Source: a virus (taxonomy: Duplodnaviria; Caudoviricetes). From it: DNA of 64,000 nucleotides. Location: the IMG/VR virus record IMGVR_UViG_3300032285_001531; one strand, 5' to 3'. The notes below the pieces were generated by a model, which worked only from the letters and a program-made list of their open reading frames with translations, was not told the DNA's origin and did no database searches. The translations under genes and the position numbers were made by a program. Below, piece by piece: positions 572-61,479 of the stretch (the stretch's first letter is position 1; every line of letters begins with the position of its first letter).

Positions 572-742
572 ATGACACTTATTTGGGTATTACTAGTATT
601 TGTAACTAATGACGGAGAATGGCGTGAATGGAACTCCTTTACCCGTGAGAGTGAGTGTTTGGAAGTAGCAAGAGTAATCACACATCACCGTGAAGATAGT
701 ATTCAAGCTATGTGTGTAGCAAAACCAGTTATTAGTTCTTAA
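572..742 (+). CDS. 56-aa small protein with hydrophobic N-terminus and two Cys (MTLIWVLLVFVTNDGEWREWNSFTRESECLEVARVITHHREDSIQAMCVAKPVISS); not in ORF track
   Basis: Translated by hand. TAAATA lies at 561-566, 5 nt before the ATG. It shares the F-x5-C...C pattern with ORFs at 3396, 42142 and 42324. Confidence 0.65.
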   Translation: MTLIWVLLVFVTNDGEWREWNSFTRESECLEVARVITHHREDSIQAMCVAKPVISS

Positions 743-744
743 AG

Positions 745-995
745 AATTGTTGTAATTCCTTCAAAGTGAAGGCATTCTGGACGCGGGTTCGACTCCCGCC
801 TGGTCCACCATAAGAGCATACTGTGTTTTTATGATGGGCTAGACATGGTTTCGACAGGGTGAGATAATAGAGAAGGCAACACAGTAGGCGATGACTGTAA
901 ATCAAGCAAAATTAGTATCTGCAAACGATGATACATATCTATTAGCCGCAAACGGCTAATTAGCGGGGCAACTATGCCTTGTTACCAAAAATAGT
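745..995 (+). ncRNA. ssrA: Two-piece (circularly permuted) tmRNA: acceptor piece ending at CCA 810, intervening segment 811-835, coding piece from 836
   Basis: T-arm GCGGG-TTCGACT-CCCGC (783-799) is followed by CTGGTCC-A-CCA (800-810). Downstream GGGCTAG (836-842) pairs with CTGGTCC, giving the G3.U70 alanine determinant and A73. GGTTTCGAC D-loop analogue; hairpin in the intervening segment; resume codon GCA at 921 opens tag ANDDTYLLAANG* (921-959). The 5' and 3' ends of the pieces are approximate. Confidence 0.93.
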
Positions 996-1050
996 AATAG
1001 GAGCTTCGGCTCCTATTTATTTGGATAAAAGGCTCTTCGGAGCCTTTTAT
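996..1050. terminator. Two tandem UUCG hairpins terminating the tmRNA and the convergent minus-strand operon
   Basis: AATAGGAGC-TTCG-GCTCCTATT (996-1018) and ATAAAAGGCTC-TTCG-GAGCCTTTTAT (1025-1050). Confidence 0.85.
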
Positions 1051-1970
1051 TCTATGAATTCTATTTTTTCTAGGTTATTAAAGATGTAGTTTTGTAGTGG
1101 CATAGATGTATGTGCTACAAAGCCAATTGGAAATTCTAATGGTAGTGCATCAATCACTAACTTATGACCTTCTACCCAATGATTAAATTCTGCAGATTGA
1201 TAAATCTTTTTTCTGTTTACATTAGTATCAATTAAAAATCCACCATGCGAACCTAATCTACCAGTACAATCTTTTGCTAATAAATCATCATGGTCATAGA
1301 AACTCTGCATTATTGATTTGCCTAACATTGAACTATTCAATAAAACTAAGTTTTCTTCTGTACGTTCCATAAAAGAATAATTTAGTTTCTGCTCATCATC
1401 AGCGAACTCTAACCAAATGGGCATATCTACATTGGGTAAAGCACCAATTGCATATATAGGATAGTTATCATCAACAAATTTAGAATTTAATAAATTAGAA
1501 GTAAAGTTCTCTAGAATACATATTGAGTTATTGATAGGTTGTAAGATATTGTACCATGTTTTGTAACTCATATCTTTAGGGAATATGAATTTAGGATCAA
1601 AAGGATTAAGTACTGCATCTTTCTGTAGATACCATAACATATTGTACGTGTAGAATCTATTAATTTTGTTTAGTGTTTGTTGCTTATAATCAAATTCTTC
1701 AGGTATATCAAAGGGCATAATATATCCCAATGATTCTAATTGTCTCATGCTACGTGCTACTGTTTTCCAACTATTCTTATACGTGAATGTTTCAAACACT
1801 GTTCTTCTGCGTATTGATTTATCGTAGGATGCTTCTAAATGACGTATCCCGTATGAATCATAAATGGGTTTAAAATGTTTAAACCACTTGACCACTACAG
1901 GATCGTTATACAGCTTTATAATTATATGTTTTTTAGTTAAAAAAGATTTGTACGTTAATATCAGTTGCAT
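1047..1970 (-). CDS. hypothetical protein (307 aa)
   Basis: Long ORF, 1-nt gap from the stop of the upstream gene; no recognised motif. Confidence 0.7.
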   Translation of the reverse strand: MQLILTYKSFLTKKHIIIKLYNDPVVVKWFKHFKPIYDSYGIRHLEASYDKSIRRRTVFETFTYKNSWKTVARSMRQLESLGYIMPFDIPEEFDYKQQTLNKINRFYTYNMLWYLQKDAVLNPFDPKFIFPKDMSYKTWYNILQPINNSICILENFTSNLLNSKFVDDNYPIYAIGALPNVDMPIWLEFADDEQKLNYSFMERTEENLVLLNSSMLGKSIMQSFYDHDDLLAKDCTGRLGSHGGFLIDTNVNRKKIYQSAEFNHWVEGHKLVIDALPLEFPIGFVAHTSMPLQNYIFNNLEKIEFIE

Positions 1971-1971
1971 A

Positions 1972-2613
1972 TTATTTTTTCATTAGTTCATTTACAAATT
2001 CTAGTAATAAGTCATGCTGACCACCATGCCACTTATTCTTCATCCATGAATACATAGTATACCAGTTTTCTTCTGCTTCAGGATGACAGCCCATGATTCC
2101 AATTCTGCCTTGAAATATAGCCATTGGGTCACCGTTTGCGTAAGTAGCGTAGGTTTCAAATTTAGTTCTGTCGCCTTCTAATGCGCATCCATCGTAGAAG
2201 AACATGGTCATATCTTTGCCGTTCCAATTGATAGAGATGTCTTTTGCATGTGGTCTGCGTGTATCTGTGTTGGGTTGAGTAATATATTGTACTGCATCTA
2301 CACTGTCTAGTATATCAAAATAATGTGATCCTGCCCAATATGCACCCATACAAATACCCAAATATCTACCGCCTCTTGCCACAAAGTCACGTATTCTAGG
2401 AGCATGATGTTTCATCAAATAATGCCAACTTTCACTGTCTCCGTCACCCCCAGGGAAGGCTACGATATCTACATCATCAAAGAAATCATCTTCAATTTGG
2501 TGCCAAGTGAACAATTTTAGATTAAAATGAGTAGAAAAAGCCTTAATCATTCCGTTGGCACACTGCACCGAACAACGGGGTTGATGTATGAATAAAGCTA
2601 TTGTAGGTTTCAT
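1972..2613 (-). CDS. BPL_N-like / class I glutamine-amidotransferase-fold protein
   Basis: FPGG, GICMGAY nucleophile elbow, FFYDG and HPE motifs; TAAATA at 2621-2626 (minus strand) 7 nt before the ATG. Confidence 0.75.
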   Translation of the reverse strand: MKPTIALFIHQPRCSVQCANGMIKAFSTHFNLKLFTWHQIEDDFFDDVDIVAFPGGDGDSESWHYLMKHHAPRIRDFVARGGRYLGICMGAYWAGSHYFDILDSVDAVQYITQPNTDTRRPHAKDISINWNGKDMTMFFYDGCALEGDRTKFETYATYANGDPMAIFQGRIGIMGCHPEAEENWYTMYSWMKNKWHGGQHDLLLEFVNELMKK

Positions 2614-2688: not shown

Positions 2689-3399
2689 TTAATTCCAGTA
2701 CGTACTATTGTCTAGTTTGTTCCAGTATTCTATATTGTTACGATTTATAAAGTTTTTGATGAGGTACGCAGCCATTCCAAAATAGCCCATTTTCTTAAAT
2801 CTGCGTGAATCCTGTCCAAAGTAATGTTTGATGATTTTGAATTTTTTCGGACTATACATTCTGGATAGGAAATAATCTTCAGAGGTCGAGAACTTTTCAG
2901 GGAACCCACCAAATTCTTCAAACTTGTCTCTACGAGTGAGCATGAACGCACCCACAGCAAATGGGCTAAAATATTTTAGAACACTATTAACTAAATTAAA
3001 GATACTAAAGCCAATAGCTGTTCTCCAATCATCATCGTAACACATGATATTCAATCCAACTAAATCTAAGTTATTACTTTCAATTTCATTAACTGCATCT
3101 TGTATAACATATTTGCTGAAAAAACGGACATCAGCATCAATAAACAAAATATATGGAGTAGTAACTAATCTTGCTCCGTTGTTCTTAGCGACACTAACAG
3201 GACCACCATCTATGATTTCTATATTTAAAAAAGCACTATTGTCTTTTATAACTTGTCTGGTATTGTCTGTAGAACAATCAGCAATAATAATTCTAGTACC
3301 ACCTAGCTCCTGTAAGCGCAGGGAATCAATTAAATGATAAATGTAATTTTCTTCATTTTTGCAAGGAACTACAATTGTAATTTTTTCACTTAGTTTCAT
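2689..3399 (-). CDS. Family 2 glycosyltransferase (GT-A); likely start MKLSEK at 3399
   Basis: IVVPCKNE, IIADCSTD, LFIDAD (DxD), GAFML, EDY and DSRRF motifs; ATGA overlap with the upstream small gene. Confidence 0.88.
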   Translation of the reverse strand: MKLSEKITIVVPCKNEENYIYHLIDSLRLQELGGTRIIIADCSTDNTRQVIKDNSAFLNIEIIDGGPVSVAKNNGARLVTTPYILFIDADVRFFSKYVIQDAVNEIESNNLDLVGLNIMCYDDDWRTAIGFSIFNLVNSVLKYFSPFAVGAFMLTRRDKFEEFGGFPEKFSTSEDYFLSRMYSPKKFKIIKHYFGQDSRRFKKMGYFGMAAYLIKNFINRNNIEYWNKLDNSTYWN

Positions 3400-3569
3400 A
3401 TTTTTTTTACGCATTTACCTTCAATCTTAAATGATTCAAATTTTACCCAATAAGCCATGCTTCTTAGACTTTGTTCGCAACTTTGTTGATCTGGAAAATC
3501 CATTGTCATTTTCGCTGGAATGTCCTTTGGATCGTTTATGTGTACCGCTATCAATATCATCAACCACAT
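3396..3569 (-). CDS. 57-aa small two-Cys protein (MWLMILIAVHINDPKDIPAKMTMDFPDQQSCEQSLRSMAYWVKFESFKIEGKCVKKI); not in ORF track
   Basis: Translated by hand. SD CAGGAGA is 6 nt upstream. Its TGA overlaps the GT2 ATG (ATGA at 3399-3396). It overlaps the last 134 nt of the plcP ORF in another frame. Confidence 0.75.
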   Translation of the reverse strand: MWLMILIAVHINDPKDIPAKMTMDFPDQQSCEQSLRSMAYWVKFESFKIEGKCVKKI

Positions 3570-4320
3570 TATCTGTCTCCTGTGTCCAAGTTACAATCTC
3601 CCACTTACCATTGTGATGTTCTACAAGTGCAGTCATTGATTCAACCCAATCACCGTCGTTCATATAAACGACACCATCTACTTCTTTTATCTCTGCATGA
3701 TGTATATGACCACATATAACACCATCAAATCCTCGCTTCTTACAATACTGTGCTAAGTTCTTTTCAAACTGGAACATAAAGTCTATGGCTCGTTTGACTT
3801 TTCCTTTAAGATACTTAGAAAGGCTCCAATAACCAAAACCCATCCTATGACGGATCCAATTAAATCGAGTGTTGAGAGCAAGGACGAAATCATAGGCTTT
3901 ATCTCCTAATATTGAAAGCCAAGGTGCTAGTCTTGTGATTCCATCAAACAAGTCACCATGCACTACTAAGTAATGCTTACCATCTACACCTATATGTTCT
4001 ATTTGATTGGTAATCTCTAGCATACCAAATCCTAAACCATAATGCATAAAAGGTCTTAAGAACTCGTCATGGTTACCTGCTACGTATACAACTCGTGTAC
4101 CACGTTTGCTATGACCAAGTATTCTACGTATCACATTACTATGACTTTGTTTCCAGCGCCACTTGTTTTGTTTAATCTTCCAAGCATCAATGATGTCACC
4201 AACAAGGTATAATGTTTCGCAACTGTTATTCTTTAAGAAATTGTTTAGTGCTTCTGCTTTACAGTCTTTAGTACCTAAATGTACATCACTGATAAAAATA
4301 CTGCGATAAGTCTTATTCAT
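3436..4320 (-). CDS. plcP: PlcP-type Mn-dependent phospholipase C / LpxH-like metallophosphoesterase
   Basis: Calcineurin-like motifs SDVHLG, LVGDIID, GNHDE, HGDLFD and GHIHH. Also NDGDWVES and the WLSILGDKAY...FGYWSLS membrane insert typical of Pho-regulon PlcP proteins, which are often annotated UDP-2,3-diacylglucosamine hydrolase. Confidence 0.8.
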   Translation of the reverse strand: MNKTYRSIFISDVHLGTKDCKAEALNNFLKNNSCETLYLVGDIIDAWKIKQNKWRWKQSHSNVIRRILGHSKRGTRVVYVAGNHDEFLRPFMHYGLGFGMLEITNQIEHIGVDGKHYLVVHGDLFDGITRLAPWLSILGDKAYDFVLALNTRFNWIRHRMGFGYWSLSKYLKGKVKRAIDFMFQFEKNLAQYCKKRGFDGVICGHIHHAEIKEVDGVVYMNDGDWVESMTALVEHHNGKWEIVTWTQETDNVVDDIDSGTHKRSKGHSSENDNGFSRSTKLRTKSKKHGLLGKI

Positions 4321-4338
4321 GTTATTATCCTATATAAT

Positions 4339-4373
4339 TATTTAATAGGAATTGTGTGACAATAATATGACAA
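4339..4373 (-). promoter_or_regulatory. Pho box promoter of the plcP operon
   Basis: Minus strand TTGTCAT-ATTA-TTGTCAC (4373-4356), 11-bp periodic direct repeat matching the PhoB consensus CTGTCAT-N4-CTGTCAY; then 10 nt, then TTAAATA (4345-4339). Confidence 0.85.
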
Positions 4374-4380
4374 ACCGTAA

Positions 4381-4404
4381 AAAAAGGCACCTAAGTGCCT
4401 TTTT
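4381..4404. terminator. Rho-independent terminator after pstS-porin
   Basis: AAAAAGGCAC-CTAA-GTGCCTTTTT. Confidence 0.85.
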
Positions 4405-4422
4405 ATTTTGCTCTAAATTAGA

Positions 4423-5547
4423 TTAGAAGCGATGCTGAATGCCAACTGCAAATGCACGTTGACTTAAAGCACTGTCACCAAAGTTTGAGCCACCACCATC
4501 TGGTACCCAACGATCATAAACAGTAAATGGTGCTGCTGCGTTTGCATTGCGGTTAGCAACTACATAGTCAGCGAACACTTCTGTACGCTTGCTGAATGCA
4601 TAAACTGCACCAACTGCATACATCTTAACATCATCTTTACCTGCTGTTACTTGGTCTTGTACATTGTAGTAACCACCGTTAACACTTACACGATCGGTAA
4701 CTTTGTACTTCGCACCAGCAAACCAAGTACGTGCATCAGTCTTACCGTCAGCTTTCGATGAGCTTGCACGGAATGCTGTTAGTGTATTTGGATTGTTAGT
4801 GATAACATAACCAGCGTTAACTAGTAAAGCATCAGTAACATTATACTTTGCTGCAACTAAGTCGATCTTTTCATCAACGTTAGCATTGGTTAAACGAACT
4901 TCTTCGTGTGTATATGCTACTTCTACTGGACCTGCTGTATACTTACCACCAATGTTGTAGCTGCTCTTTGAAGTAGTATCATTTAACTGATTACCAAAAC
5001 TATAAGAACCATCAACAACTAAGCCACCAAAGCTTGGTGATGTATAGCGAACCATGTTATCAAAACGTGATACGCCTGAACCACTATAGAAACCAGCATA
5101 ACGTGCGATTGGCTTTAAGCCACCGAAGTTCCAGTTGCCACGTGAATCAAATTCATCAAGTACGTTGTACAAGAAGTTCTTGCCACGACCTAATTGAATC
5201 TGACCAAATGAACCAGCTAGGGCTACATTTGCTTCACGATCAAATACTGTGGTTGAACCTGCACCGCCACTGCCTGAATCTTTACCAATTCCGCCAGTAC
5301 GTAGACTCAAGTTACTTTCTAAGTTAAACTTAGCTGTCATACCGTCGCCTAGGTCTTCTACACCTTTGAAGCCTAACCGATTGCTGCTGTGTAACTGTTC
5401 ACCGAAACCAGTGAAGTCACTGTTAGCTGAAGTGAAACCACTACCGCTAACTACACCTGCACCCAACAAACCATAAACGGTAACGTTCTGTGCCTGTGCA
5501 ACACCAGCCATAAGCATAAGTGCTGCTACTAATTTTGTTACTTTCAT
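4423..5547 (-). CDS. Gram-negative trimeric porin (betaproteobacterial type)
   Basis: Signal peptide; NRLGFKGVEDLGDG, RFDNMVRYTSPSFGG; C-terminal GIQHRF with terminal Phe; ATGA coupling to pstS. Confidence 0.92.
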   Translation of the reverse strand: MKVTKLVAALMLMAGVAQAQNVTVYGLLGAGVVSGSGFTSANSDFTGFGEQLHSSNRLGFKGVEDLGDGMTAKFNLESNLSLRTGGIGKDSGSGGAGSTTVFDREANVALAGSFGQIQLGRGKNFLYNVLDEFDSRGNWNFGGLKPIARYAGFYSGSGVSRFDNMVRYTSPSFGGLVVDGSYSFGNQLNDTTSKSSYNIGGKYTAGPVEVAYTHEEVRLTNANVDEKIDLVAAKYNVTDALLVNAGYVITNNPNTLTAFRASSSKADGKTDARTWFAGAKYKVTDRVSVNGGYYNVQDQVTAGKDDVKMYAVGAVYAFSKRTEVFADYVVANRNANAAAPFTVYDRWVPDGGGSNFGDSALSQRAFAVGIQHRF

Positions 5548-6551
5548 TTTACTTCTCCTAAGTTAAATTTAGACCATACATTCTTAACTATGGCAACTAC
5601 CTCTTTTGGTAGAGGAACATAGTCAAGTTCTACAGCCATCTTTTCTCCATTGTTAAAAGACCAATTGAAAAATTTTAAAACAGCTAATCCGACCGCAGGA
5701 TCGGCTTGCTGCTTATGCATGATTATATACGATGCACCTGTAATGGGCCAAGCATTCTGGTTAGATTGGTCTGTTAATATAACAGCCATACCAGGTGAAT
5801 TAGCCCAATCAGCACCTATTGCTGCTGCTTTGAATGTATCGTCATCAGGTTGAATCCATTTGCCTGCTTTGTTCTTTACTTGAACATGTGCAATTTTATT
5901 CTTTTTGGCATATGCGTATTCTACATAGCCAATTGCACCTTGCAGTCTTTGTGCGTTTGCAGCAACACCTTCGTTACCTTTGCCGCCTACGCCTGTTGGC
6001 CATTTAACTGCTGTACCTGAACCAACCTTTTCTTTCCATTCAGGAACTGTTTTGCTTAACCAGTCAGTGAACAAAAATGTTGTGCCTGAACCATCAGCAC
6101 GATGTAGTACAGTGATATCCATATCAGGAAACTTAACTGTTGGGTTTAGTTCTTTGATACGAGGATCAGTCCACTTAGTGATTTTGCCTAAGTATATAGC
6201 AGCAATTACATCTGCTGTTAATTTTATTTGCCCAGGCTGAATGCCAACTAGATTTACAACTGGAACTACTCCACCGATAATAGCTGGGAATTGAACTAAA
6301 CCTTCTTTGTCTAGTTCTTCTTGTTTCAACGGCATATCACTTGCACCAAAATCTACTGTTTTAGCTTTGATTTGTTTAATACCACCACCTGAACCAATTG
6401 ATTGATAATTAAGACCTATCCCTGTTTGGGCTTTATATGCTTCTGCCCATTTAGAATAGATTGGATAGGGGAATGTTGCTCCTGCTCCTGTGATGTCTGC
6501 TGCAAATGACGTACTTGACAGAATTACAAGTACTGCGAATAATTTTTTCAC
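5544..6551 (-). CDS. pstS: Phosphate ABC transporter substrate-binding protein
   Basis: ITGAGATFPYP, YQSIGSGGG, VDFGASD, HRADGSGTT, GKGNEGV, WPITG; signal peptide; GTG start with AGGAG SD. Confidence 0.97.
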   Translation of the reverse strand: MKKLFAVLVILSSTSFAADITGAGATFPYPIYSKWAEAYKAQTGIGLNYQSIGSGGGIKQIKAKTVDFGASDMPLKQEELDKEGLVQFPAIIGGVVPVVNLVGIQPGQIKLTADVIAAIYLGKITKWTDPRIKELNPTVKFPDMDITVLHRADGSGTTFLFTDWLSKTVPEWKEKVGSGTAVKWPTGVGGKGNEGVAANAQRLQGAIGYVEYAYAKKNKIAHVQVKNKAGKWIQPDDDTFKAAAIGADWANSPGMAVILTDQSNQNAWPITGASYIIMHKQQADPAVGLAVLKFFNWSFNNGEKMAVELDYVPLPKEVVAIVKNVWSKFNLGEVK

Positions 6552-13162: not shown

Positions 13163-14263
13163 ATGGCATCACAAATCAGCGATAACCATACAATTACAAG
13201 TGTACAAACACGTGACGCATTACTAACCGCATTTAAAGTTAAACGCCCAATCTTTCTTTGGGGCCCTCCCGGTATCGGTAAATCTGAAGTAGTTTCAGAA
13301 GTAACTGATGAACTTGGTGGTCTTATGATTGACTTACGTATGGCTCAAATGGAACCAACTGACATTCGAGGTATCCCATACTTTAATAAAGAAAATAATA
13401 AAATGGATTGGGCACCCCCAATCGATTTACCTGATGAAGAATTAGCAGCACAATATCCAATCATTGTGTTGTTCTTAGATGAGATGAACTCAGCACCTCC
13501 TGCAGTACAAGCAGCAGGCTATCAGTTGATTTTGAATCGCCGTGTAGGTCGTTATAAACTACCAAACAATGTTGTTATCGTAGCAGCAGGTAATCGTGAC
13601 AGTGACAAAGGTGTTACTTATCGTATGCCGATGCCGCTTGCTAATCGTTTCATTCACTTAGAAATGCGTTCAGATTTTACAGCATGGCAGGCTTGGGCAG
13701 TAAATAAAGCTATTCACAAAGACGTTGTTGGTTATCTGTCATTTGCTAAAAATGACTTATATGACTTTGATAGCAAATCTTCAAGCCGTGCATTTGCTAC
13801 ACCTCGTTCATGGTGCTTTGTGAGTGACTTGTTACAAGATGAAAAAATGAGTTCTGATACTCAATTCAATCTAATTGCAGGTGCAATTGGTGAAGGTCTT
13901 GCTACTAAGTTTGCAGCACATCGCCGTATGGCAGGTAAGATGCCTGAGCCAAGCGAAATTCTTGCAGGCAAAGTAAAAGAACTAGCAGTCAAAGAAGTTT
14001 CTGCAATGTACGCACTAGCTATTGCAATGTGCTATGAATTAAAAGATGCAGTTGACAATAAGAAAGTGGATATGAAGAAGTTCCACGAAATGGCTGATAA
14101 TTTCTTTGCTTATGCGATGGCTAACTTTGAAACTGAATTGGTTGTTGTTAGTGCTAAAATTGCACTGAAAACATACAAGCTTCCAATCGAACCAAGTCAG
14201 TTGAAAAACTTTGACGAATTTCACAAGAAGTTCGGTAAGTATATCGTAGAAGCAGGTAACTAA
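13163..14263 (+). CDS. MoxR-like AAA+ ATPase
   Basis: Walker A GPPGIGKS, Walker B LFLDE, AAGN, NRF and TPRSW motifs. Confidence 0.88.
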   Translation: MASQISDNHTITSVQTRDALLTAFKVKRPIFLWGPPGIGKSEVVSEVTDELGGLMIDLRMAQMEPTDIRGIPYFNKENNKMDWAPPIDLPDEELAAQYPIIVLFLDEMNSAPPAVQAAGYQLILNRRVGRYKLPNNVVIVAAGNRDSDKGVTYRMPMPLANRFIHLEMRSDFTAWQAWAVNKAIHKDVVGYLSFAKNDLYDFDSKSSSRAFATPRSWCFVSDLLQDEKMSSDTQFNLIAGAIGEGLATKFAAHRRMAGKMPEPSEILAGKVKELAVKEVSAMYALAIAMCYELKDAVDNKKVDMKKFHEMADNFFAYAMANFETELVVVSAKIALKTYKLPIEPSQLKNFDEFHKKFGKYIVEAGN

Positions 14264-14300
14264 TTTAGAGGTAGCTCCCTGGTATAGCAATATACCATTT

Positions 14301-14332
14301 GGGTGAGAGTAGAAATATTCTCACCCGTTTTT
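14301..14332 (+). terminator. Rho-independent terminator
   Basis: GGGTGAGA-loop-TCTCACCC-GTTTTT. Confidence 0.75.
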
Positions 14333-14337
14333 AATTC

Positions 14338-14366
14338 TTGACAGTGAATCTATGCTTTGCTATAAT
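14338..14366 (+). promoter_or_regulatory. Early sigma70 promoter 5
   Basis: TTGACA-17-TATAAT. Confidence 0.9.
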
Positions 14367-14395
14367 TATTATGTTACTTTTAATAGGAGCTCAAA

Positions 14396-15682
14396 ATGAG
14401 TGATGTTGTCGGAAAGAAAAAGAAAAAACGCAGCAAAGAATTTGAAAATTTAGTAGGTCCCACTGACCCTAAAATTGATGCACAAGCACGTGAACGATTA
14501 ATTACTGCTCGTGTAGGTTTGTTATTACGTCATAGTTTTTTCGGTAATCTTGCAACACGTTTGCAAATGATTAATGCTGATGAATGGTGCAGCACTGCTG
14601 CTACCGACGGCAAACGTTTCTATTACAATTCACGTTTCATTATGATGTTAAAGACCAAAGAAGTTGAATTTTTAGTTGGTCACGAAGTATTACATGTAGT
14701 ATATGACCATATGGGTCGTAGAGGTACACGTGATCCTCAGCTATGGAACATTGCAGATGACTATGCAGTTAACGCAGATTTGAAACGTCATCGTGTAGGT
14801 GAATTCATTACTACTGTCCCTTGCTTATATGAATCAAAATATGACGGCATGAGTGCTGAGGCAATCTATGATGATTTGTATGACAAAGCAGAAAAAATCA
14901 ATATTGATGATTTGTTAGATAAGATGATTGACGATCATATGGATGGTGATGGTGAGTGTGATGGAGATAATGAGGGTGATGAAGATAGTGAAGGCAATGG
15001 CAAACGTCCTAAGATGAGTCCTGAAGAACGTGAACAAGCCCGTCAAGAAATGAAACAGGCTATTATCAGTGCTGCACAAAGTGCTGAAGCAGGTACTATT
15101 CCAAAAGGTGTTGAACGTTTAATTAAATCAGTTACTAACCCTGTTATGCCTTGGCGTGAATTGATTCAAACTAACTTAACTAGTGCTATTCGCACTGACT
15201 ATAGTTGGATACGCCCGAGTCGTAGAGGCTGGCATATGGATGCAGTAATGCCCGGCATGACACCAGGTGAAGAAATTGACGTTGATATTGCTATTGACAT
15301 GTCAGGCTCAATCAGTGACACACAAGCACAGGCATTCTTAGCTGAGATTGCAGGAATGATGGATGCATTTGATGGATACCGTGTTCATGTATTCTGCTTT
15401 GATACAAGCATTTATAATCCACGTGATTATACAAGTGAGAATCTTGACAGTATTGATGAGTATGAACCACAAGGTGGTGGCGGTACTGACTTTGATGCTG
15501 TCTTTGACTATCTAAAAGAAGCAGGTCGTGTACCAAATCGTTTAATCGTATTCACAGATGGTTATCCATGTGGTAGTTGGGGCGATTCAAATTATTGTGA
15601 TACTACTTGGATCATTCATGGTGACAAAGATCCTAATCCCCCATTTGGTACATTTGCAATATATGATGACCATAAGAAGTAA
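14396..15682 (+). CDS. DUF2201-type metallopeptidase-like plus vWA domain protein (MoxR partner)
   Basis: HEVLH (HExxH), MIDAS-type IDMSGS, GGGTDF and FTDG. Confidence 0.85.
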   Translation: MSDVVGKKKKKRSKEFENLVGPTDPKIDAQARERLITARVGLLLRHSFFGNLATRLQMINADEWCSTAATDGKRFYYNSRFIMMLKTKEVEFLVGHEVLHVVYDHMGRRGTRDPQLWNIADDYAVNADLKRHRVGEFITTVPCLYESKYDGMSAEAIYDDLYDKAEKINIDDLLDKMIDDHMDGDGECDGDNEGDEDSEGNGKRPKMSPEEREQARQEMKQAIISAAQSAEAGTIPKGVERLIKSVTNPVMPWRELIQTNLTSAIRTDYSWIRPSRRGWHMDAVMPGMTPGEEIDVDIAIDMSGSISDTQAQAFLAEIAGMMDAFDGYRVHVFCFDTSIYNPRDYTSENLDSIDEYEPQGGGGTDFDAVFDYLKEAGRVPNRLIVFTDGYPCGSWGDSNYCDTTWIIHGDKDPNPPFGTFAIYDDHKK

Positions 15683-51908: not shown

Positions 51909-54900
51909 ATGGCAATAATACAACTTTCCAAAATTCAACACCGTACAGGGGCTAACGTAGATTTGCCCCAACTAGCTGAGGGCGAATTAGGTTTCGCCAC
52001 AGACGAGCGTAGACTTTACATAGGTAATGACGCAAATCTGTTTCCCCCTTTAGGGACTAGTACTACTACTCAGACTGAGATACTCACAGAGGTTTCTACT
52101 CTGAATTGGTCAAGACTGGGTGGTTCTGCAAATACAACATTAAACATAGAGGCCCCTGTAGAAGATGGGCAGTTAATTGTTGCTAATTCAAATACATGGA
52201 CTAATGCAGGTGGTACTTCAGCTTTGCCTATCAATTTAGGTAATATTCAAAATCTTAATATCGGTGGTGGTTTAAATGGATATGTACTTACAACTGACGG
52301 CTCAGGTAATCTAAGCTGGCAGGGTAGCGGTGTTGTGACATATGCTGTTGCTAATGTTTCACAAGCTAATCCTGCAGTCGTAACAACTACTGAAGATAAT
52401 GCAATCTTAACTGGATTGCAAGTTACAATCTTTGGTGTTGGTGGTATGACCCAGCTAAAGACAGCCGGTGCAAGTGGCACAAACAAATTCTATGTAGTAA
52501 AACAATCTAACAGTACATTCACCCTGTACTCGGACAGTACATTATTATCAGCAGTTAACAGTTCGGCATTTACTGCAGCAGTTCCTAATACAGGTAATGC
52601 AGTCACATCATTCTATGAAAACGGCACAGGTAATCCAGGTGGTGGAAATAGAAATATTCAATTCAATGATGGTTCTGGATTATTTGGTGGTATTGGTACT
52701 TTTACATTTGATAAAACTACTTCTAATTTAAGTTTAACCGGTAATGCAAACATAACATATGATATTGCTGCAAATAATTTCATAGGTAAGTTTACAGGAC
52801 CAATAGGAAACACAACAGCCAATACAGGTAACTTTACGACTATCAATGCTGCTTCTACTATTAGCACTTCAGGAAATGTTTCTGCAGGTGGTAATGTAGT
52901 AGTCACTGGAAATATAAGCACAGGTAGTAATTTAACAACAGCAGGCAATTTAAGTGTAACAGGTAATACTAAGTTAACAGGTAAATTGTCAATGGGTGGT
53001 AATATAGTAGGCAATTTAGTACCAGATGCTGACATCACTTATAATTTAGGTAGTCCAACAAGACGTTGGAAAGATTTATACATATCAAGTAACTCACTCG
53101 TTATTGGTAATGGTACATTATCTACTAGTCCTACTGGTGACTTTAATTTTTCAAACTCAAACATAACAACATTAAATGCTAATTTAGGTAATCTAGCAAC
53201 TGCTAATTTCTTAGGCGGCACACTAATTGCATCATCAAGTTCACAACCTAACATATCAACTGTTGGTAATCTAACAAGTTTGAATGTTGCTGGTATAAGT
53301 AATTTAGGTCCAGTAAACAATGTGTTTATTGGCAACTCTACTGCAAATTATGTATTAACTGCTACTGATGCAAATGGAACCATGCGTTGGTTACCAACCC
53401 AGTATATTGAAACTCCTGCTAAAGGCTCAAATCAAAGCGTACAGTTTAATGTAGGTAATGTAATTTCTGGCAGTGCTAATTTCTTATTTGATAAAGATTT
53501 TAATAAATTAACAGTTCCTAACCTTGTTGTCGGAACAACAATTAACGGCAATGCCACTATTAGTGTTACTGGTAATATAACTGGTAATGCCATTAACGCA
53601 ACTACACTTAATGTTAGTGGTGCTGTAATCGCATCAAACACAGTTAGTGCTGCAGGCAATCTTACATCAAACGGTATACTTACTGTTAATAACAATGCAG
53701 CTATCACTGGTAATTTAAGTTTAACTGGAACCATTACTGCTAATCTTACAAATGCAGGCAATGTAAGTGTATCAGGTAATACAACTACTTCACGTTTATC
53801 TGTAGTATCTAATGTAGTTGCTAACGGTAATATTACTGGTGGTAATATATTAACATTGGGTAGTATATCTGCTGGTGGTAATGTAGATGCAAATAATCTA
53901 AATGCAGCAGGCAATGTCATCATTACTGGACAAGCAAACGCAGTGCGTTTTGTAGCTAGTGCAGAAATTAAAGCTGGTCAATATATTCAAGCTGCTGGTA
54001 AAGCATATATCGGTGAAGATGTATTAGCAAATGGTAATGTTTCTGGTGCTAATATTTTAACTTTAGGTAATGTTTCAGCAGGTGGAAACTTAACTATAGC
54101 AGCAAATGCACAAATCAACGGTAATGCTACTATTACTGGCACTATTGCTGGTGGTAATATTACTACTCTTGGCTTAATCAGTGCAAGAGGTAATATCAAT
54201 GGTGCTAATATTACTGCTAATGGATTTATCACCACAACAGGTGATGTAACAGCAAATGGTGCAATATCAGCAAATGGTAATATTACTAGTTTAGGAACAA
54301 TAACAGCTAACGCATTGAACGTTGGTAATGTATCAACAACTGGTAATTTAACAGTCAACAATCTTGCTGTAGCAAACTTTGTAAGTTCATCATTACTACC
54401 AAATGCAGATATTTCTCTTGCATTGGGTGGCCCAACTAAACGTTGGTCAACATTATATGTTGGCAACACAATCAATATTGGTGATAAGACTATTGTTTCA
54501 GATGCAAATGGTATTGGATTTGGTGCTGCATTATTCAATCAAGCTAATGCAAATATTGCTAACTTAAGAACAGCATATGCAAATCTACCAGATACCGGTA
54601 ATATCAAGATACCAGGTGGTACTTTAGGTGCAATTCTTAAAACAGACGGTAATGGTAATATAAGTTGGGGAGCACCTAGTAGCTTTGTATCTGGTGCAGC
54701 CGGGTCAAACACACAAGTTCAGTTTAACGATGCTAATATAATGGCTGGTAGTGCGAACTTTGTATTCAACAAAACAAGTAACACATTAACAGTAGATAAG
54801 ATCATTGCAAATGGTAGTGGTCTAACAGGAATGAATGGTGCAAATGTAACAGGCACAGTAAGTTCTGCTAGTGTAGCAGGAACAGTATCAGTAAATGCAC

Positions 54901-57900
54901 AACCAAATATTAATAGTGTTGGTAATCTAACAGGTCTAGTGGTAGGTAATTTAGGTAATGTTGATTTCAGTAATACAACTGCAGTAACTTTAAACAGTAA
55001 TAGTCTACGAGTTCCAAATGGTTGGACTCCTGGAATGTCAATCATTGCTGTTAGTCCAACCGCTAATAGTAATGCAGACGCAGGAAAATTAAGTTGGGGT
55101 TATTCATCTCTATTACAAAATGGCAATAGTAATGTAGTTGTTGATACTGCTGCAAATATTCGTTTTACTGCCAACGGTGTAGTTAACGTAGTTACTATCG
55201 CAAACACTGGATTATTCACTTCAAATCTAACAGTTAATGCAATTGCTAATTTAGGCTCAGTTAGTAATGTAAAAATTACTGGTGGTGGACCAAATCAAAT
55301 ATTAAGAACAGATGGTAACGGTGTGTTAAGTTGGGTAGCTCCTGCAAGTACTAGTGCATTAGCAAATGCAAATAGTAACATAACAGTTGAAGCCGCAAAT
55401 ATAAATCTATCAGCAAATGGCACACCTAACGTATTACAAGTAACTGCAACCGGTGTTAATATATCTAATGAAACAATATCTGGTACTTCTAATATCGGTA
55501 CATTAAATATAAATGCTATTGCTAATCTTGGTGCAGTTGCTAATATAAGAATTGGAGGTAGTAATGTAGGATGGTTACTGCAATCAAATGGTGCTGGTGG
55601 AGTTGTTTGGACACCGCCAGCAAGTACAAGTGGCTTAACAAATGGTAACAGTAGCGTTTCTGTTGATCAAAACGGTAATATAAGAATAACTGCAAACACT
55701 GCACCTAATGTAGTTGTCATTGCAAATACAGGGCTTTTCACAAGTAATATTTCAGCGACAGGTACATTAACAACAAATGGTATCGCTGTACTAAACAACG
55801 GTAACATAACACTACCGGGTACTGCTAGTACTGCAGGTAAAATATATTGGCCAGGCACTGCTGCTTGCTCAGCACCACAACTTACTACATATTCAGGTGG
55901 TACACGATTAGTATTACAAGACTCTATTGCTACTAGTGGTTCTGCAGGATACACAATGGGTATTGAATCTGGTAATATGTGGTTTGGTACTGATGTAGTT
56001 GCAGCAGGATTTAAATGGTATGGTGGCATAACTCAAATTGCGACATTAAGTAACGCAACTGGATTTAGTACAGTTGGCAATGTTGCCGGTATTAACATTA
56101 ATACAACAGGTAATGTAAGCGCAACAGGTAATGCTAATATTGGTAATAATGTAAACACTGTTAATGTTAATGCAACCGGTAGTATAATAGCAGCTAATAT
56201 CACTGCTAATACAGTCATAAGCACAACTGGTAATATTAACTCAGGCAATGAGAATGTAACCGGTAATGTACAAGCAGGTAACTTAAGAACAACAGGTAAT
56301 GTAAGCGCAACAGGTAACATCACAACTGCAAACTTCTTTGTAGGTAATGGTTATTACTTGACAGGTGTATTAAGAGAACCAACAGCATTAATTGCTAATG
56401 GTACTTTAAGTAATGTCAGCATTCCAGCTGCTAATGGCTCCATCTCAGTAGTAGCAAATAACGTAAGTGTTATGACTATTACTAGTGTTGGTGCAAATAT
56501 CAGTGGTAATGCAAGTATTTCAGGTAATGCTAACGTAGGTAACTTAGGAACTGCGGGTAATGTTACAGCAAATTACTTTATTGGTAATGGTGCATTATTA
56601 ACAGGCATTGCAACAAGCAATCAATTGTTTAATGGAAATAGTAACGTAACTATTGATTCAAATGCTAACGTAAGAATTACTGCAAATGGATCAGCAAACA
56701 TCGTAAGTTACATTGGTAATGGTGTATATCCTGCAAATGCTAACATAGGAGCAATTCAGCCGCAAAATACTTATTATCGTGTTGGTAATGTATATGTATC
56801 ATCTGGTGGCGATTACGGACATTTCTCTACTCATGCATGGTACACTGGCGGTATGTGGATGGGTGATGGTGCAGTTGGCGGATTATTCCAAATAGCAGGA
56901 CCTACATTTAATTGGTTCAAAGGTTCTGCATGTACAAGTGTCACATACACTAGTTTGATGTCACTTGATGCTAATGGAAATTTATTCGCAAATGGTACTA
57001 TATCATCAGTAAGCAATATAACCGGTGTTAATATAATTGGTACTAATATAAGTGCCACAGCTAATGTAACTGGTGGTAATATCATAACTGCTGGTGCAGT
57101 AAGTGCTACTGGTGTAATAAGTACTGCTGGTAATATTGTAAGTAACAGCTATCACTTCTTAAATTCATATGCTGGCGCCACTGAAGGTGGTCAGATTGTT
57201 ATGTCGTTTGCTGGTGGTAACGCTTATGCTAATGCAGTAGCTTCAACATGGAACATAGATGTTGGTCCTGCAAATGACTTCCGTATATTCAATTATAACT
57301 CGGGTGGTGCGGTATCAATTCCATTCATAATTCGTCAATCAAATAATCAAGCAGATTTCACTGGAAATATTGCTACTGGTGCTAATGTTAATGCAGGCAA
57401 TGTTAATACTACCGCTGCAGTATCAGCAGGTGGTAATATTACTACAACACAGTTCTTAAATGCTGGTAGTATGAGTGTTTCTGGCACTATTAATGGTGGC
57501 GCAAATGCTAACATAGCAGGTAATTTAAATCTAACAGGTAATGCAAATGTAATAGGTAAGATAAATGTATCCAATAGCATTAGTATGGCTAATGGCTCTC
57601 TGAACATAATTAATTGGGGTACTGCTGGTTATGCACCGCCTAGTATTGTAGCAGCTTATGGAAATGGCACAAAAATTGTATTGTTTGACAGTAAAACATC
57701 AACTGCTACTGCTCTTGGCTACACAATGGGTATTGATACAAGTACATTCTACTTTACCAGTGATGTAAACTTTAAATGGTATACTAATGGCTCACTAACA
57801 CCAGTAGCAACAATGACTCCTACAGGATTCAGTGTCACTGGCACAGTTAATGCATCCAACTTTGTTGGTAACGGATCTGGTCTTACTGGTATTTCAGCAT

Positions 57901-60900
57901 CAAATGCACTTAGTTTGGTAAACGGTTCAAGTAATGTTGTAGTTGACGTAAATGGTGCAATAAGAATTGGTGCAATAGGTGTGCCTAATGTGTTGACCAT
58001 CACAAACACAGGCACAGTAGTGACAGGTACAGAAAGCGTAACTGGTGCTATTACTGCTAATGGTGCAATTACAACGGCAACAACTTTAACTGCAGCTAAT
58101 TTGAGTATTACTGGAAATGTAGCATTTACTGCTGCAAACGTAAGTTTAGGATCTAATACTGCTGTTAGAATTACTGGTGGGGGTCCTAATCAATTCTTAA
58201 AAACAGATGGAAACGGTAATTTAAGTTGGGTTTCTGCAGGTGGTACTGCAAACGTTGCAGGTGCACCAACTCAAGTACAGTTTAACACTGGCGGTGCAAT
58301 GGATGCTAGTGCTAACTTTACATTTGATAAAACAACTAATACATTAGTAGTCACTAATGCTACAAATTCAGGTAACTTAAGCGTAGGCGGTAATGCAACT
58401 GTAGCAGCTAACTTAAGTGTTACTACAGGCAATATCAGTGCTAGTGGTAACGTTAGCTTAATTGGCAATAACGTAACTGGTAAACTAGTGTTTAACAATA
58501 ATGGTGTTGCAGCTCCGATATTAAATGGTGTAAGTAATGGTACTAGAACAATTTTCTATAATTCAGCAGGAGCTCAAGCTACTAACTTTGCAATGGGTAT
58601 AGATAGTAGCACATTATGGTACAGTGTTCCGGATACAGCTAGTTTCCACAGATGGTACGGTGGAACAACTCAGCTTGCATATCTAACTGGAATTGGATTC
58701 TCTGTAACAGGTAACATATTTGCTAGTGCTAATATTAGTACTATTGGCAATATTCTTGCTGCAGGTTTACTCAGTGTTACTGGAACAATTTCAAGTACTG
58801 GTGCTATTGCTACCCCAAGTACAATCAGTGCTACAGGTAATATTAATACTACAGCTACACTAAATGCAGCAGCATTGTCTGTAACTGGAGCAGCAATTTA
58901 CGGTGGTGTAATTAACACAACAAGCACAATGAGTGCTACTGGTACAGTAACGGCAGGTGGATTTATCACTGCAGGTACAATTAGTGCTAATGGTACTATT
59001 ACATCAAATACTGCAATTAACACTACAGGTACTATAAGTGCTACTGGTAACATTACTACTGCTGGTTACATACAAGCTGCAGGTCTTGCTTCTAGCGGTA
59101 ACATGGCAATCCCAGCAGGTAATTCATTATTGATGGGAACAAATGCTGGCACATCAGCTAAGATAATATGGGATGCAGCTGGGACAGGAGCACCAACATA
59201 TAGTGCATTTAGTCCAGGTACAAAATTAGTATTGTATCCTGCAACTGCTGCGCCATACACACCAAGTGCAAGTGAGGTTGGATATGCAATGGGTATTGAA
59301 GCCTACTCAATATGGTATAGTACAAGCAATTCTACAGTTGGTTTCCATAGATGGTATGCAGGTAATACACAAATTGCAAACTTAAACTATCAATCATTTA
59401 CTGTAGCAGGAAATTTAAGTGCAGTTGGTAATGTTTATTCAAATAACGAAAACGTAACAAGTAATGTACAAGCAGGTAACTTAAGAACAACAGGTGTAGT
59501 ATCTGCAGCAAGTACAATAACCGGTGGCAATTTAGTAACAGGAGGCACAATAAGTTCATATGGTATTGCAACATTAGGTAATGTTGTTGTACCAACAGGC
59601 GGTACTATATCTGCAATCGGCAATATCATTGGTGGTAATATAGTAGCAAATGCAACTGTCACTGGTGTAACATTAAGTGCTAGTGGTAACGTAACAGGCT
59701 TTAACTTAACAACTGGCGGTGTAGTGAGTGCTGCTAGTAACGTAACCGGTGGTAATATCTTAACTGGTGGTTTAATAAGTGCTGCAGGTAGTGTTACAGG
59801 TATAAGTCTTGTTGGTAATCTATACACAGTTCGTAACGGTGGTATTTACTGGCCTAGTGATACTAGTGGTGACGTTGCAACTATCACTTATCTAAGATCA
59901 GGCGCTGATACTGGTACCCTAGAACTTTCTGTACAAAATGATACAGACGATATTATTAGATTAAATGCAAGTGGTGGTACATCAGTTGTTGGTAATTTAA
60001 CAGTTGGTGCTAACATAACAACAACTGCAAATGCTAACGTAGGTAATTTAAATGCAACAAGTAATGTACAAGCAGGTAACTTAAGAACAACTGGATTAAT
60101 AAGTGCTACTGGTAATGTAACAGCTAGTAATTTTATCACAACTGGCACGATAACTTTAGGTGGTGTCATCAGTGCTACTGGTACCCCAGCTGCTATCGCT
60201 GCTACTGGTACAATTAACACTTTAAGTACAATTAGTGCTACTGGCACAATTACTGGTGGTAATATTGTAACCGCAGGCGCAGTCAGTGCAACAGGTATAA
60301 TCAGTACTACAGCTAATATTACTACTGCAGCTAATATTAGTGCTACTGCAGGAATATTTGCTAGTACAATTAGTGCTGTTGGTAATATCAACAGTACAGG
60401 TAACATTATAACTAATGGTACAATATGTACTATAGGATTGATAGTAAGTGCAGGTGCAAGTGCTAACTTTGCCTCTCCGATATATGCAACATCATTAATT
60501 AGTACTACTGCAACAGTTACTAGTGCTGTTTTAAGTGCTACAGGAAATGTAAATGCTGCTAATGTAATATCTACTGGTAATGTAAATGCTGGTACTAACA
60601 TAAGTGCTACTGGTAATATTACTTCTGCAGCAAACATAAGTACTAGTGGTAATATTATTGCTGCTGGCACAATGAGTTCTACTGGATTAGCGACACATGG
60701 TAGTTTAAGTGTCGTTGGTAGTTCTACTCATACTGGTGCAATCAATACAACTAATGCTATTAGTGCTGTTGGTACGGTTACTGCAGGTGGATTCAGTACT
60801 ACAGGAAATACTATTACTGGTAATTTAAGCGTTACTGGTAACGTAATTGGTACATTAACTGTTCCTGGTACTGCAAATATTGGTACTGCAAATGTAACTA

Positions 60901-61355
60901 CTTTAAATGTATCTGGTGCTGCTAATGTAAGTCCAAGTTCAGTTGTAAGAGATCCTGCTAATGCAGCAATAAATATTCCAGTTGGATATCGTATAAATCC
61001 ACTAATTCCCGTAACAATGGCATCTGGAACTATTGCCAGTGTTTTATACGATAATAACGCTACACAAAAAATATTTTATGTCACTGGTGCAACCGTAGCT
61101 ACTGGTGTAATTAATTGGGAAGGCAGCGGATCTTTCGAACGTTTTGCTCTTGGTTCAGTTATAACTATTATCAATGATAGTTCAGGAACAGTACAAGCTT
61201 CTGGCTCCTATGCTGGATGTAATTTTAGACGAGCGCAAACCGGAGCTACAACAAATACTATTAATGTTGGACCTAATGGTTATGCAGTATTTACTAAGAT
61301 TGTATCTGTTGGACCAGGCGGATATCCATTATGGTTCGTGTCAGGTAATTTCTAA
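51909..61355 (+). CDS. Giant tail fibre / receptor-binding protein (3148 aa)
   Basis: N-terminal IQHRTG...LAEGELGFATDERRLYIG attachment motif; long G/N/A/T/I/S/V repeats; repeated globular inserts; late promoter at 51873. Confidence 0.8.
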   Translation: MAIIQLSKIQHRTGANVDLPQLAEGELGFATDERRLYIGNDANLFPPLGTSTTTQTEILTEVSTLNWSRLGGSANTTLNIEAPVEDGQLIVANSNTWTNAGGTSALPINLGNIQNLNIGGGLNGYVLTTDGSGNLSWQGSGVVTYAVANVSQANPAVVTTTEDNAILTGLQVTIFGVGGMTQLKTAGASGTNKFYVVKQSNSTFTLYSDSTLLSAVNSSAFTAAVPNTGNAVTSFYENGTGNPGGGNRNIQFNDGSGLFGGIGTFTFDKTTSNLSLTGNANITYDIAANNFIGKFTGPIGNTTANTGNFTTINAASTISTSGNVSAGGNVVVTGNISTGSNLTTAGNLSVTGNTKLTGKLSMGGNIVGNLVPDADITYNLGSPTRRWKDLYISSNSLVIGNGTLSTSPTGDFNFSNSNITTLNANLGNLATANFLGGTLIASSSSQPNISTVGNLTSLNVAGISNLGPVNNVFIGNSTANYVLTATDANGTMRWLPTQYIETPAKGSNQSVQFNVGNVISGSANFLFDKDFNKLTVPNLVVGTTINGNATISVTGNITGNAINATTLNVSGAVIASNTVSAAGNLTSNGILTVNNNAAITGNLSLTGTITANLTNAGNVSVSGNTTTSRLSVVSNVVANGNITGGNILTLGSISAGGNVDANNLNAAGNVIITGQANAVRFVASAEIKAGQYIQAAGKAYIGEDVLANGNVSGANILTLGNVSAGGNLTIAANAQINGNATITGTIAGGNITTLGLISARGNINGANITANGFITTTGDVTANGAISANGNITSLGTITANALNVGNVSTTGNLTVNNLAVANFVSSSLLPNADISLALGGPTKRWSTLYVGNTINIGDKTIVSDANGIGFGAALFNQANANIANLRTAYANLPDTGNIKIPGGTLGAILKTDGNGNISWGAPSSFVSGAAGSNTQVQFNDANIMAGSANFVFNKTSNTLTVDKIIANGSGLTGMNGANVTGTVSSASVAGTVSVNAQPNINSVGNLTGLVVGNLGNVDFSNTTAVTLNSNSLRVPNGWTPGMSIIAVSPTANSNADAGKLSWGYSSLLQNGNSNVVVDTAANIRFTANGVVNVVTIANTGLFTSNLTVNAIANLGSVSNVKITGGGPNQILRTDGNGVLSWVAPASTSALANANSNITVEAANINLSANGTPNVLQVTATGVNISNETISGTSNIGTLNINAIANLGAVANIRIGGSNVGWLLQSNGAGGVVWTPPASTSGLTNGNSSVSVDQNGNIRITANTAPNVVVIANTGLFTSNISATGTLTTNGIAVLNNGNITLPGTASTAGKIYWPGTAACSAPQLTTYSGGTRLVLQDSIATSGSAGYTMGIESGNMWFGTDVVAAGFKWYGGITQIATLSNATGFSTVGNVAGININTTGNVSATGNANIGNNVNTVNVNATGSIIAANITANTVISTTGNINSGNENVTGNVQAGNLRTTGNVSATGNITTANFFVGNGYYLTGVLREPTALIANGTLSNVSIPAANGSISVVANNVSVMTITSVGANISGNASISGNANVGNLGTAGNVTANYFIGNGALLTGIATSNQLFNGNSNVTIDSNANVRITANGSANIVSYIGNGVYPANANIGAIQPQNTYYRVGNVYVSSGGDYGHFSTHAWYTGGMWMGDGAVGGLFQIAGPTFNWFKGSACTSVTYTSLMSLDANGNLFANGTISSVSNITGVNIIGTNISATANVTGGNIITAGAVSATGVISTAGNIVSNSYHFLNSYAGATEGGQIVMSFAGGNAYANAVASTWNIDVGPANDFRIFNYNSGGAVSIPFIIRQSNNQADFTGNIATGANVNAGNVNTTAAVSAGGNITTTQFLNAGSMSVSGTINGGANANIAGNLNLTGNANVIGKINVSNSISMANGSLNIINWGTAGYAPPSIVAAYGNGTKIVLFDSKTSTATALGYTMGIDTSTFYFTSDVNFKWYTNGSLTPVATMTPTGFSVTGTVNASNFVGNGSGLTGISASNALSLVNGSSNVVVDVNGAIRIGAIGVPNVLTITNTGTVVTGTESVTGAITANGAITTATTLTAANLSITGNVAFTAANVSLGSNTAVRITGGGPNQFLKTDGNGNLSWVSAGGTANVAGAPTQVQFNTGGAMDASANFTFDKTTNTLVVTNATNSGNLSVGGNATVAANLSVTTGNISASGNVSLIGNNVTGKLVFNNNGVAAPILNGVSNGTRTIFYNSAGAQATNFAMGIDSSTLWYSVPDTASFHRWYGGTTQLAYLTGIGFSVTGNIFASANISTIGNILAAGLLSVTGTISSTGAIATPSTISATGNINTTATLNAAALSVTGAAIYGGVINTTSTMSATGTVTAGGFITAGTISANGTITSNTAINTTGTISATGNITTAGYIQAAGLASSGNMAIPAGNSLLMGTNAGTSAKIIWDAAGTGAPTYSAFSPGTKLVLYPATAAPYTPSASEVGYAMGIEAYSIWYSTSNSTVGFHRWYAGNTQIANLNYQSFTVAGNLSAVGNVYSNNENVTSNVQAGNLRTTGVVSAASTITGGNLVTGGTISSYGIATLGNVVVPTGGTISAIGNIIGGNIVANATVTGVTLSASGNVTGFNLTTGGVVSAASNVTGGNILTGGLISAAGSVTGISLVGNLYTVRNGGIYWPSDTSGDVATITYLRSGADTGTLELSVQNDTDDIIRLNASGGTSVVGNLTVGANITTTANANVGNLNATSNVQAGNLRTTGLISATGNVTASNFITTGTITLGGVISATGTPAAIAATGTINTLSTISATGTITGGNIVTAGAVSATGIISTTANITTAANISATAGIFASTISAVGNINSTGNIITNGTICTIGLIVSAGASANFASPIYATSLISTTATVTSAVLSATGNVNAANVISTGNVNAGTNISATGNITSAANISTSGNIIAAGTMSSTGLATHGSLSVVGSSTHTGAINTTNAISAVGTVTAGGFSTTGNTITGNLSVTGNVIGTLTVPGTANIGTANVTTLNVSGAANVSPSSVVRDPANAAINIPVGYRINPLIPVTMASGTIASVLYDNNATQKIFYVTGATVATGVINWEGSGSFERFALGSVITIINDSSGTVQASGSYAGCNFRRAQTGATTNTINVGPNGYAVFTKIVSVGPGGYPLWFVSGNF

Positions 61356-61386: not shown

Positions 61387-61479
61387 AGCTAAATACTATA
61401 GTTCACTCTCTATATGAGAGAGTTTATGCAGCACCCACTGCGTAGACCCTAGAACGGTCACTATAGGAGATTAAAACAA

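Follow-up and report, generated by a model that had tools for sequence, protein, structure and literature searches.

tmRNAs encoded in two pieces are known from phages and are common in aquatic ones (PMC9004378), and phage tmRNAs in general have been listed (PMC4131195). The closest described systems are those of the Methylophilales phage Melnitz and of the pelagimyophages (Buchholz et al. 2022, PMC9004378), which carry a permuted ssrA gene with an encoded CCA end, an intervening sequence and a tag of the ANDx type. As gains of a phage from its own tmRNA, it has been proposed that hijacked ribosomes are kept running and that host proteins are recycled (PMC9004378). In E. coli, tag function is not critical for plaque formation by a tmRNA-dependent phage, and engineered variants with non-degradable tags, of the ssrA-DD or ANDH6D type, still support the growth of such a phage (PMC2481249).

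The tmRNA gene described here lies in 64,000 nucleotides of phage DNA (the whole stretch that was analysed, in the following the window) and shares the listed features with Melnitz and the pelagimyophages; its phage, too, is an aquatic, low-GC, large myophage. The last residue of their tags, however, is a hydrophobic A or V with the stop directly behind it, whereas the predicted tag of the window is two codons longer and ends in -NG. Also, the best Rfam model of the window gene is the beta-proteobacterial type, while Melnitz ssrA groups with alphaproteobacterial ssrA (PMC9004378). With ssrA-DD and ANDH6D the gene has in common that ribosome release is expected and that the tag lacks Ala-Ala-COO-; those are laboratory constructs of measured stability in which LAA has been replaced, whereas the predicted window tag is natural and extended beyond LAA. 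A further likeness is that to the weakened, adaptor-dependent ssrA derivatives of the DAS type, in which the SspB-binding AANDxxY part is intact and the ClpX-binding end is altered; from this likeness one would expect degradation that is slowed and dependent on the adaptor, but not abolished. Finally, the tmRNA database holds a few entries with apparent frameshifts or odd stops in their tag frames (Williams group 2025, PMC11915505), and one phage locus of the present survey (L236) is similar to these. In the window gene, by comparison, the stop has been lost cleanly and in frame, a second stop follows at once, the gene otherwise scores highly, and the anomaly is reproduced in a second assembly. 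A description of a natural tmRNA with its degron end masked by an in-frame extension was not found in a literature search of limited extent.

The gene and its phage

Positions 703-1052 (plus strand) hold a circularly permuted, two-piece tmRNA gene, with leader and terminator included. ARAGORN calls a permuted tmRNA (tmRNA*) at 718-1050(+) with the tag ANDDTYLLAANG*, the Rfam model RF01850 (beta-type tmRNA) matches 703-1019 with 181.3 bits (E 1e-56; gathering score 84), and RF04321 (permuted tmRNA) matches 748-953 with 134 bits (threshold 47). The order is permuted: T-arm and CCA end come first, then the intervening sequence, and then the 5' acceptor strand and the tag. The acceptor piece (748-810, plus strand like all parts of the gene), read from the sequence and aligned to both Rfam models, comprises the T-arm (783-799; GCGGG at 783-787, TTCGACT, CCCGC at 795-799), the 3' acceptor strand CTGGTCC (800-806) and the encoded ACCA (807-810). 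It is followed by the intervening sequence (811-835), delimited by alignment with contig L039 and other relatives, which would be cut out on maturation; it measures 25 nt in the window and roughly 70-110 nt in the relatives L039 and L042-47. The 5' acceptor strand GGGCTAG (836-842) pairs with 800-806 in a stem of 7 bp (GGGCUAG:CUGGUCC) that contains G3:U70 plus one U5:G68 wobble, and A807 stands as discriminator before CCA. G3:U70 is the identity pair of AlaRS.

Just upstream of the tag, in the region of pseudoknot 1, lies a 25-nt core (886-910) that is invariant apart from A or C at one position and was found by exact matches in at least 120 metagenome contigs and at least 120 IMG/VR contigs. 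Downstream of the tag, the RF01850 alignment places the 3' structural domain (963-1025), consisting of a GGGGC / CCTTGTTACC element and a hairpin at 996-1017. The gene ends with an intrinsic, terminator-type hairpin and T-run (1027-1052), which is kept in all relatives and is common to the tmRNA gene and the convergent gene at 1047-1970(-). At the other end, the leader of the tmRNA is overlapped by an ORF of 56 codons (572-742, plus strand), which gene callers report in all related contigs; it could be a genuine small gene, or else a false call that covers promoter and leader of the tmRNA.

The window phage carries genes for a large terminase, a T4-type SSB, UvsX/RecA-like and DnaB-like proteins, tail proteins and thymidylate synthase, its GC content is about 0.36, and its relatives come from lake metagenomes. 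The tmRNA belongs to a T4-like freshwater phage of about 350 kb. Genes for SmpB, Clp or Lon were not found within the 64-kb window. Several other loci of the window deserve mention. At 2689-6551(-), a module that is kept in sister contigs encodes a PstS-like phosphate-binding protein, a Porin_4 porin, a metallophosphoesterase and a GT2 glycosyltransferase; the Atlas neighbours of the porin point to a host in the Pseudomonadota, at the rank of phylum. At 13163-15682(+), a gene for a MoxR-like AAA ATPase is followed by one with DUF2201 metallopeptidase-like and VWA domains, on which the PHROGs label HNH endonuclease looks like a misnomer. In the 3148 residues of the ORF at 51909-61355(+), Pfam recognises just one domain, Mtd_N (major tropism determinant), at the N-terminus; the product is likely to be a giant fibre or a protein for receptor binding. 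Between the end of this ORF and the next one (61480-62616), the Rfam freshwater-2 RNA motif occurs at 61406-61482(+) with 57.7 bits (threshold 49.9).

The tag end and its displaced stop

The codons from 921 to 959 read GCA AAC GAT GAT ACA TAT CTA TTA GCC GCA AAC GGC TAA. The tag frame (921-956, resume codon GCA at 921-923) is anchored in two ways, by codon-for-codon alignment with the relatives and by U916 and A917 (916-917), which stand at -5 and -4 of GCA and are the frame-setting equivalents of U85 and A86 at -5 and -4 of the resume codon in E. coli (PMC2481249). Resume codon and frame, already proposed in the first-pass annotation, are borne out by ARAGORN and by the codon alignment. The tag has no stop after Ala-Ala, as AAC GGC stand before the TAA at 957-959, and the predicted end is -LAANG. 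Hence, the hydrophobic Ala-Ala (or A/V) end with its immediate stop is absent from the window tag. The RF01850 alignment gives the same picture: opposite the consensus ...GCCGCcUAAaAaCgGC, the window has a gap of exactly four columns, which means that the consensus stop is missing, and AAC (Asn, 951-953) occupies the position of the relatives' stop codon.

The end of the tag lies in a perfect hairpin of 8 bp (941-960), in which ATTAGCCG (941-948) and CGGCTAAT (953-960) enclose the loop CAAA. Its predicted folding energy is -10.1 kcal/mol (z -2.7), compared with -11.1 kcal/mol for the hairpin of the relatives. Sequence and fold thus agree with the earlier description of such a hairpin, in which the stop has moved to a TAA on the 3' arm. 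This TAA (957-959, next base T) complements TTA (942-944), a Leu codon of the 5' arm, and owes its existence to this pairing. The relatives likewise carry TAA or TAG in frame two codons past their own stop; it is the same triplet, complementing the Leu codon of the 5' arm, that serves as stop in the window. The TAA at 957 is a by-product of the hairpin. The idea that back-up stops are a selected general feature was rejected, as a second in-frame stop within 5 codons is present in 21 of 129 tmRNAs compared with 77 of 258 control frames.

An unusual tag end of this kind could also be an artefact, whether an error made in sequencing or assembly or a chimera put together from phage strains that occur side by side, and the mosaic pattern of the gene described below does resemble what strain chimeras can look like. 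Against this stands contig L041, a Logan contig from run ERR2848522 produced with a different assembler from a different run, which is 100% identical over 1610 bp (window 882-2491), a stretch that reaches from the tag through the 3' domain to the flanking gene; as this second assembly is independent, an assembly error is unlikely. In addition, four adjacent base differences within a perfect hairpin are not typical of Illumina errors, and AAAC is found in no other lineage, so that a chimera could not have created it. An ENA contig of 22,960 bp with identical flanking proteins has the same gene spacing of 304 nt, and the identical neighbour protein occurs in at least four contigs, one of 349,679 bp; the lineage is not a singleton. 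Hence, an artefact is regarded as highly improbable.

Tag ends in sister phages and in the wider family

Relatives were fetched through the protein of the gene adjoining the tmRNA (1047-1970, minus strand), by collecting homologous proteins and then the contigs encoding them; the same protein searched in IMG/VR gave no relatives. In the sister contigs (L039, L040, L050-54, L298 and L299) the neighbour protein is 91-94% identical and the tag is ANDELYALAA*. TGA stands at the tag-end codon in all nine sister contigs with a readable tag end, which read ...TTA GCC GCT TGA GGC TA(A/G). Over the same 15 positions, four adjacent bases differ between window and sisters (GCT TGA versus GCA AAC), and the length is unchanged. 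More distant relatives, with a neighbour protein of 59% identity, have the tag ANAANDEVYALAA*, with one contig (L042) ending in ...AQAA*. Relatives with a neighbour protein of intermediate identity (94-100%) were not found in this collection.

For a wider view, further loci were gathered by means of the 25-nt core, and ARAGORN on a total of 297 loci gave 214 tmRNA genes with 99 distinct tags. Of these tags, 83 end in A and 13 in V (96 of 99 together), and the three without such an end are those of the window, of L236 and of L180, the last of which is probably a wrong call. In L236 (IMG/VR 3300008117_006924), a tandem duplication of 8 nt (GATACATT twice) shifts the frame and leads to the tag ANADTLIHLTSVQ*. 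Tag length is variable: loci L058-L297 with the 25-nt core have tags from 9 to about 31 residues, and a large sub-family has long tags, e.g. ANANTGEVTVSGKNVKFSARTVKAESFAV, ending in -FAV or -LAV. The strong conservation of a hydrophobic tag end across hundreds of related phage tmRNAs argues, as far as gene comparison can tell, that the degron is normally kept.

The tmRNAs that share the tag-end hairpin were collected from IMG/VR with the pattern TAGCCGC-NNNN-GGCTAR...GGGG. A stop stands at the tag-end codon in all 41 members of this hairpin family (TGA in 24, TAA in 14, TAG in 3), and since all three stop codons are used, it is the stop itself that is conserved and, by the same reasoning, under selection. 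Tag end and stop are thus, judged from these alignments, under clear constraint in the whole class of phage tmRNAs. Comparison of the window with the tags of its relatives, a check suggested in the first-pass annotation, points to a private mutation, as a stop directly follows the second Ala in all sisters and in the entire hairpin family. The exact variant hairpin of the window is absent from IMG/VR, and an exact 18-mer from its tag is matched there three times, each time by chance within the gene for a protein. L337 (AAKG*), which at first looked like another tag without its stop, was rejected, since it is the end of an ordinary protein gene.

Does the altered tag represent an adaptation, that is, a tmRNA selected to release ribosomes while ClpXP ignores the tag? 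The stop aside, the tmRNA is intact, the tag remains clean, short and properly terminated, and the lineage is present in several contigs, including the one of 349,679 bp. The replacement stop UAA is followed by U, which is a strong stop context. Moreover, Ala-Ala-COO- (PMC7652416) is hidden behind a new end that is polar (-NG). If the idea were true, truncated phage proteins, or those made from damaged or truncated mRNAs, would be spared or host proteases, with the limited capacity of ClpXP, relieved, stalled host ribosomes would be recycled in infection, and the gene would be nature's equivalent of the ssrA-DD allele made in the laboratory. However, this end is confined to a single lineage among the hundreds of related phage tmRNAs, while the stop is kept, switching between TGA, TAA and TAG, in all sisters and in 41 of 41 hairpin-family members. 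A second independent origin was not found in IMG/VR, the only other disrupted tag being the evident frameshift of L236. Additionally, the tag retains AANDxxY, the part bound by SspB, and tagged proteins may thus still be delivered to ClpX. Rescue without degradation as a strategy of the phage, the earlier proposal, therefore lacks comparative support, given the conserved hydrophobic tag end of the relatives, and we consider such an adaptation unlikely, though worth keeping in mind.

As a separate observation, the pattern ANDD...GCCTTGTTACC occurs in 31 IMG/VR contigs and in no tmRNA of 185,579 species genomes (two non-tmRNA matches), the genome scan being narrow in that the pattern excludes tags of the ANDE type. 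This is a hint that the sub-type may be largely virus-borne.

Mosaic origin and the predicted consequences of the stop loss

Compared with L039 in bins of 50 nt, the window is 96-100% identical at 751-800, 851-900 and 1051-1300, whereas identity falls to 34% at 801-850 and to 52-70% at 901-1050. The tag region and the spacer are thus the most diverged parts of the tmRNA gene. Between the acceptor stems of the window and of L039 (GGGGATG/CATCTCC), three pairs are different, all of them compensated and with G3:U70 kept. Other parts of the gene resemble different phages: the 3' domain is 93% identical to that of L148 over 61 aligned bases (window 964-1024), with L148 having the tag ANDAYYEELRLAA*, and both ends of the spacer as well as the hairpin arms match L176, the tag of which is ANDELYSLAA*. 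The tag ANDDTYLL... has no close relative besides L041. On these alignments, the tmRNA gene is a recombinational mosaic whose modules have been exchanged with other phage tmRNAs, the source of both the acceptor strand plus spacer and the tag plus 3' domain, and such exchange seems to be common. The loss of the stop may have come with this reshuffling or later. Two mutational paths can be named: it may have been a four-base block substitution of TTGA by AAAC, or a deletion of 2 nt from a loop of the GCA-TAA-ACG type, a loop like which is seen in a relative reading ...GCC GCC TAA ACG GCC. Inversion of the loop as the origin of AAAC was rejected, because the relatives' loop GCTTGA would give TCAAGC and not GCAAAC.

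The RNA itself looks functional as far as its sequence goes. Its RF01850 score of 181 bits falls within the scores of four relatives (130.6-185.3 bits), the gene retains ACCA, the T-arm, G3:U70 and U-5/A-4, and none of these features suggests decay. This bears on the idea that the gene is decaying or repurposed, either as a pseudogene or as a decoy titrating SmpB, like the RNA of mycobacteriophage DS6A that consists of the tRNA-like domain only, with a tag that is free to drift. The strong divergence of tag region and spacer would fit such a course, and phage tmRNA derivatives without tagging function are known (PMC4131195; PMC11915505). Yet the covariance-model score equals that of the relatives, the changes in the acceptor stem are compensated, and the tag is not scrambled, as a clean ANDDxY..LAA frame is followed by an in-frame stop only two codons on. 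Decay or repurposing is therefore judged very unlikely.

From established tmRNA biology, the precursor would be expected to mature into two parts, an acceptor piece that ends with ACCA at 810 and a coding piece that starts at G836. The host AlaRS would charge it through G3:U70, and the charged tmRNA would enter stalled ribosomes with the SmpB of the host. Translation would resume at GCA 921 and go two codons further, with release at UAA 957 followed by U. Tagged proteins would then end in ...LLAANG-COO-, burying the Ala-Ala-COO- that is read by ClpX; direct ClpXP degradation would weaken, with ribosome release unaffected. The premise of the first reading, recognition of LAA-COO- by ClpX, is well founded, since what ClpX chiefly recognises is the terminal Ala-Ala-COO- (Fei et al. 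2020, PMC7652416). Because ClpX binds the terminal Ala-Ala together with the free carboxylate, -LLAANG is expected to be a poor direct substrate, and on the model of E. coli ClpX the extension probably weakens direct recognition. By the same analogy, slowed degradation, or degradation depending on an adaptor or on ClpA, is more likely than full stability, because the SspB-binding AANDxxY part and the internal Leu-Ala-Ala, an ALA-like part, are kept. SspB binds the former, and ClpA reads the latter. Thus, where the first-pass annotation had left open whether degradation of the tagged products is spared or slowed, slowing appears the likelier of the two.

One may go a step further and regard the change as neutral, with the extended tag still degraded well through ClpAP, Lon, FtsH or SspB-tethered ClpXP. 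The N-terminal part of the tag, ANDDxY, is canonical. ClpA is reported, in the 2001 work of Flynn and colleagues, to read tag residues 1-2 and 8-10 and not the last residue, and tethering by SspB reportedly rescues weakened tags such as DAS in the 2006 work of McGinness, Baker and Sauer. Furthermore, several proteases are known to act on ssrA-tagged proteins (PMC8012679). If the last residues were of so little consequence, however, it would be difficult to see why tags end uniformly in A or V across very different tags, and a fully neutral change is considered quite unlikely.

The reading that we favour, with slightly better than even confidence, is that the stop loss is private to this lineage, recent and tolerated rather than a selected device, and that it arose while recombination was reshuffling the gene or afterwards. 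It would be tolerated because a lytic phage needs its tmRNA for the release of ribosomes and not for proteolysis. That release is the part that matters to the phage is probable, and the growth of tmRNA-dependent phage in E. coli without a working tag indicates that a tag change of this kind is tolerable for a phage. A viable phage lineage with all features of ribosome rescue, in which just the degron end has been lost, would represent a natural experiment. On its own, the lineage would suggest that ribosome release, rather than proteolytic tagging, is the part that the phage needs. The survey of hundreds of phage tags, however, points the opposite way, which makes this lineage an exception among phage tmRNAs and not evidence of a general strategy.
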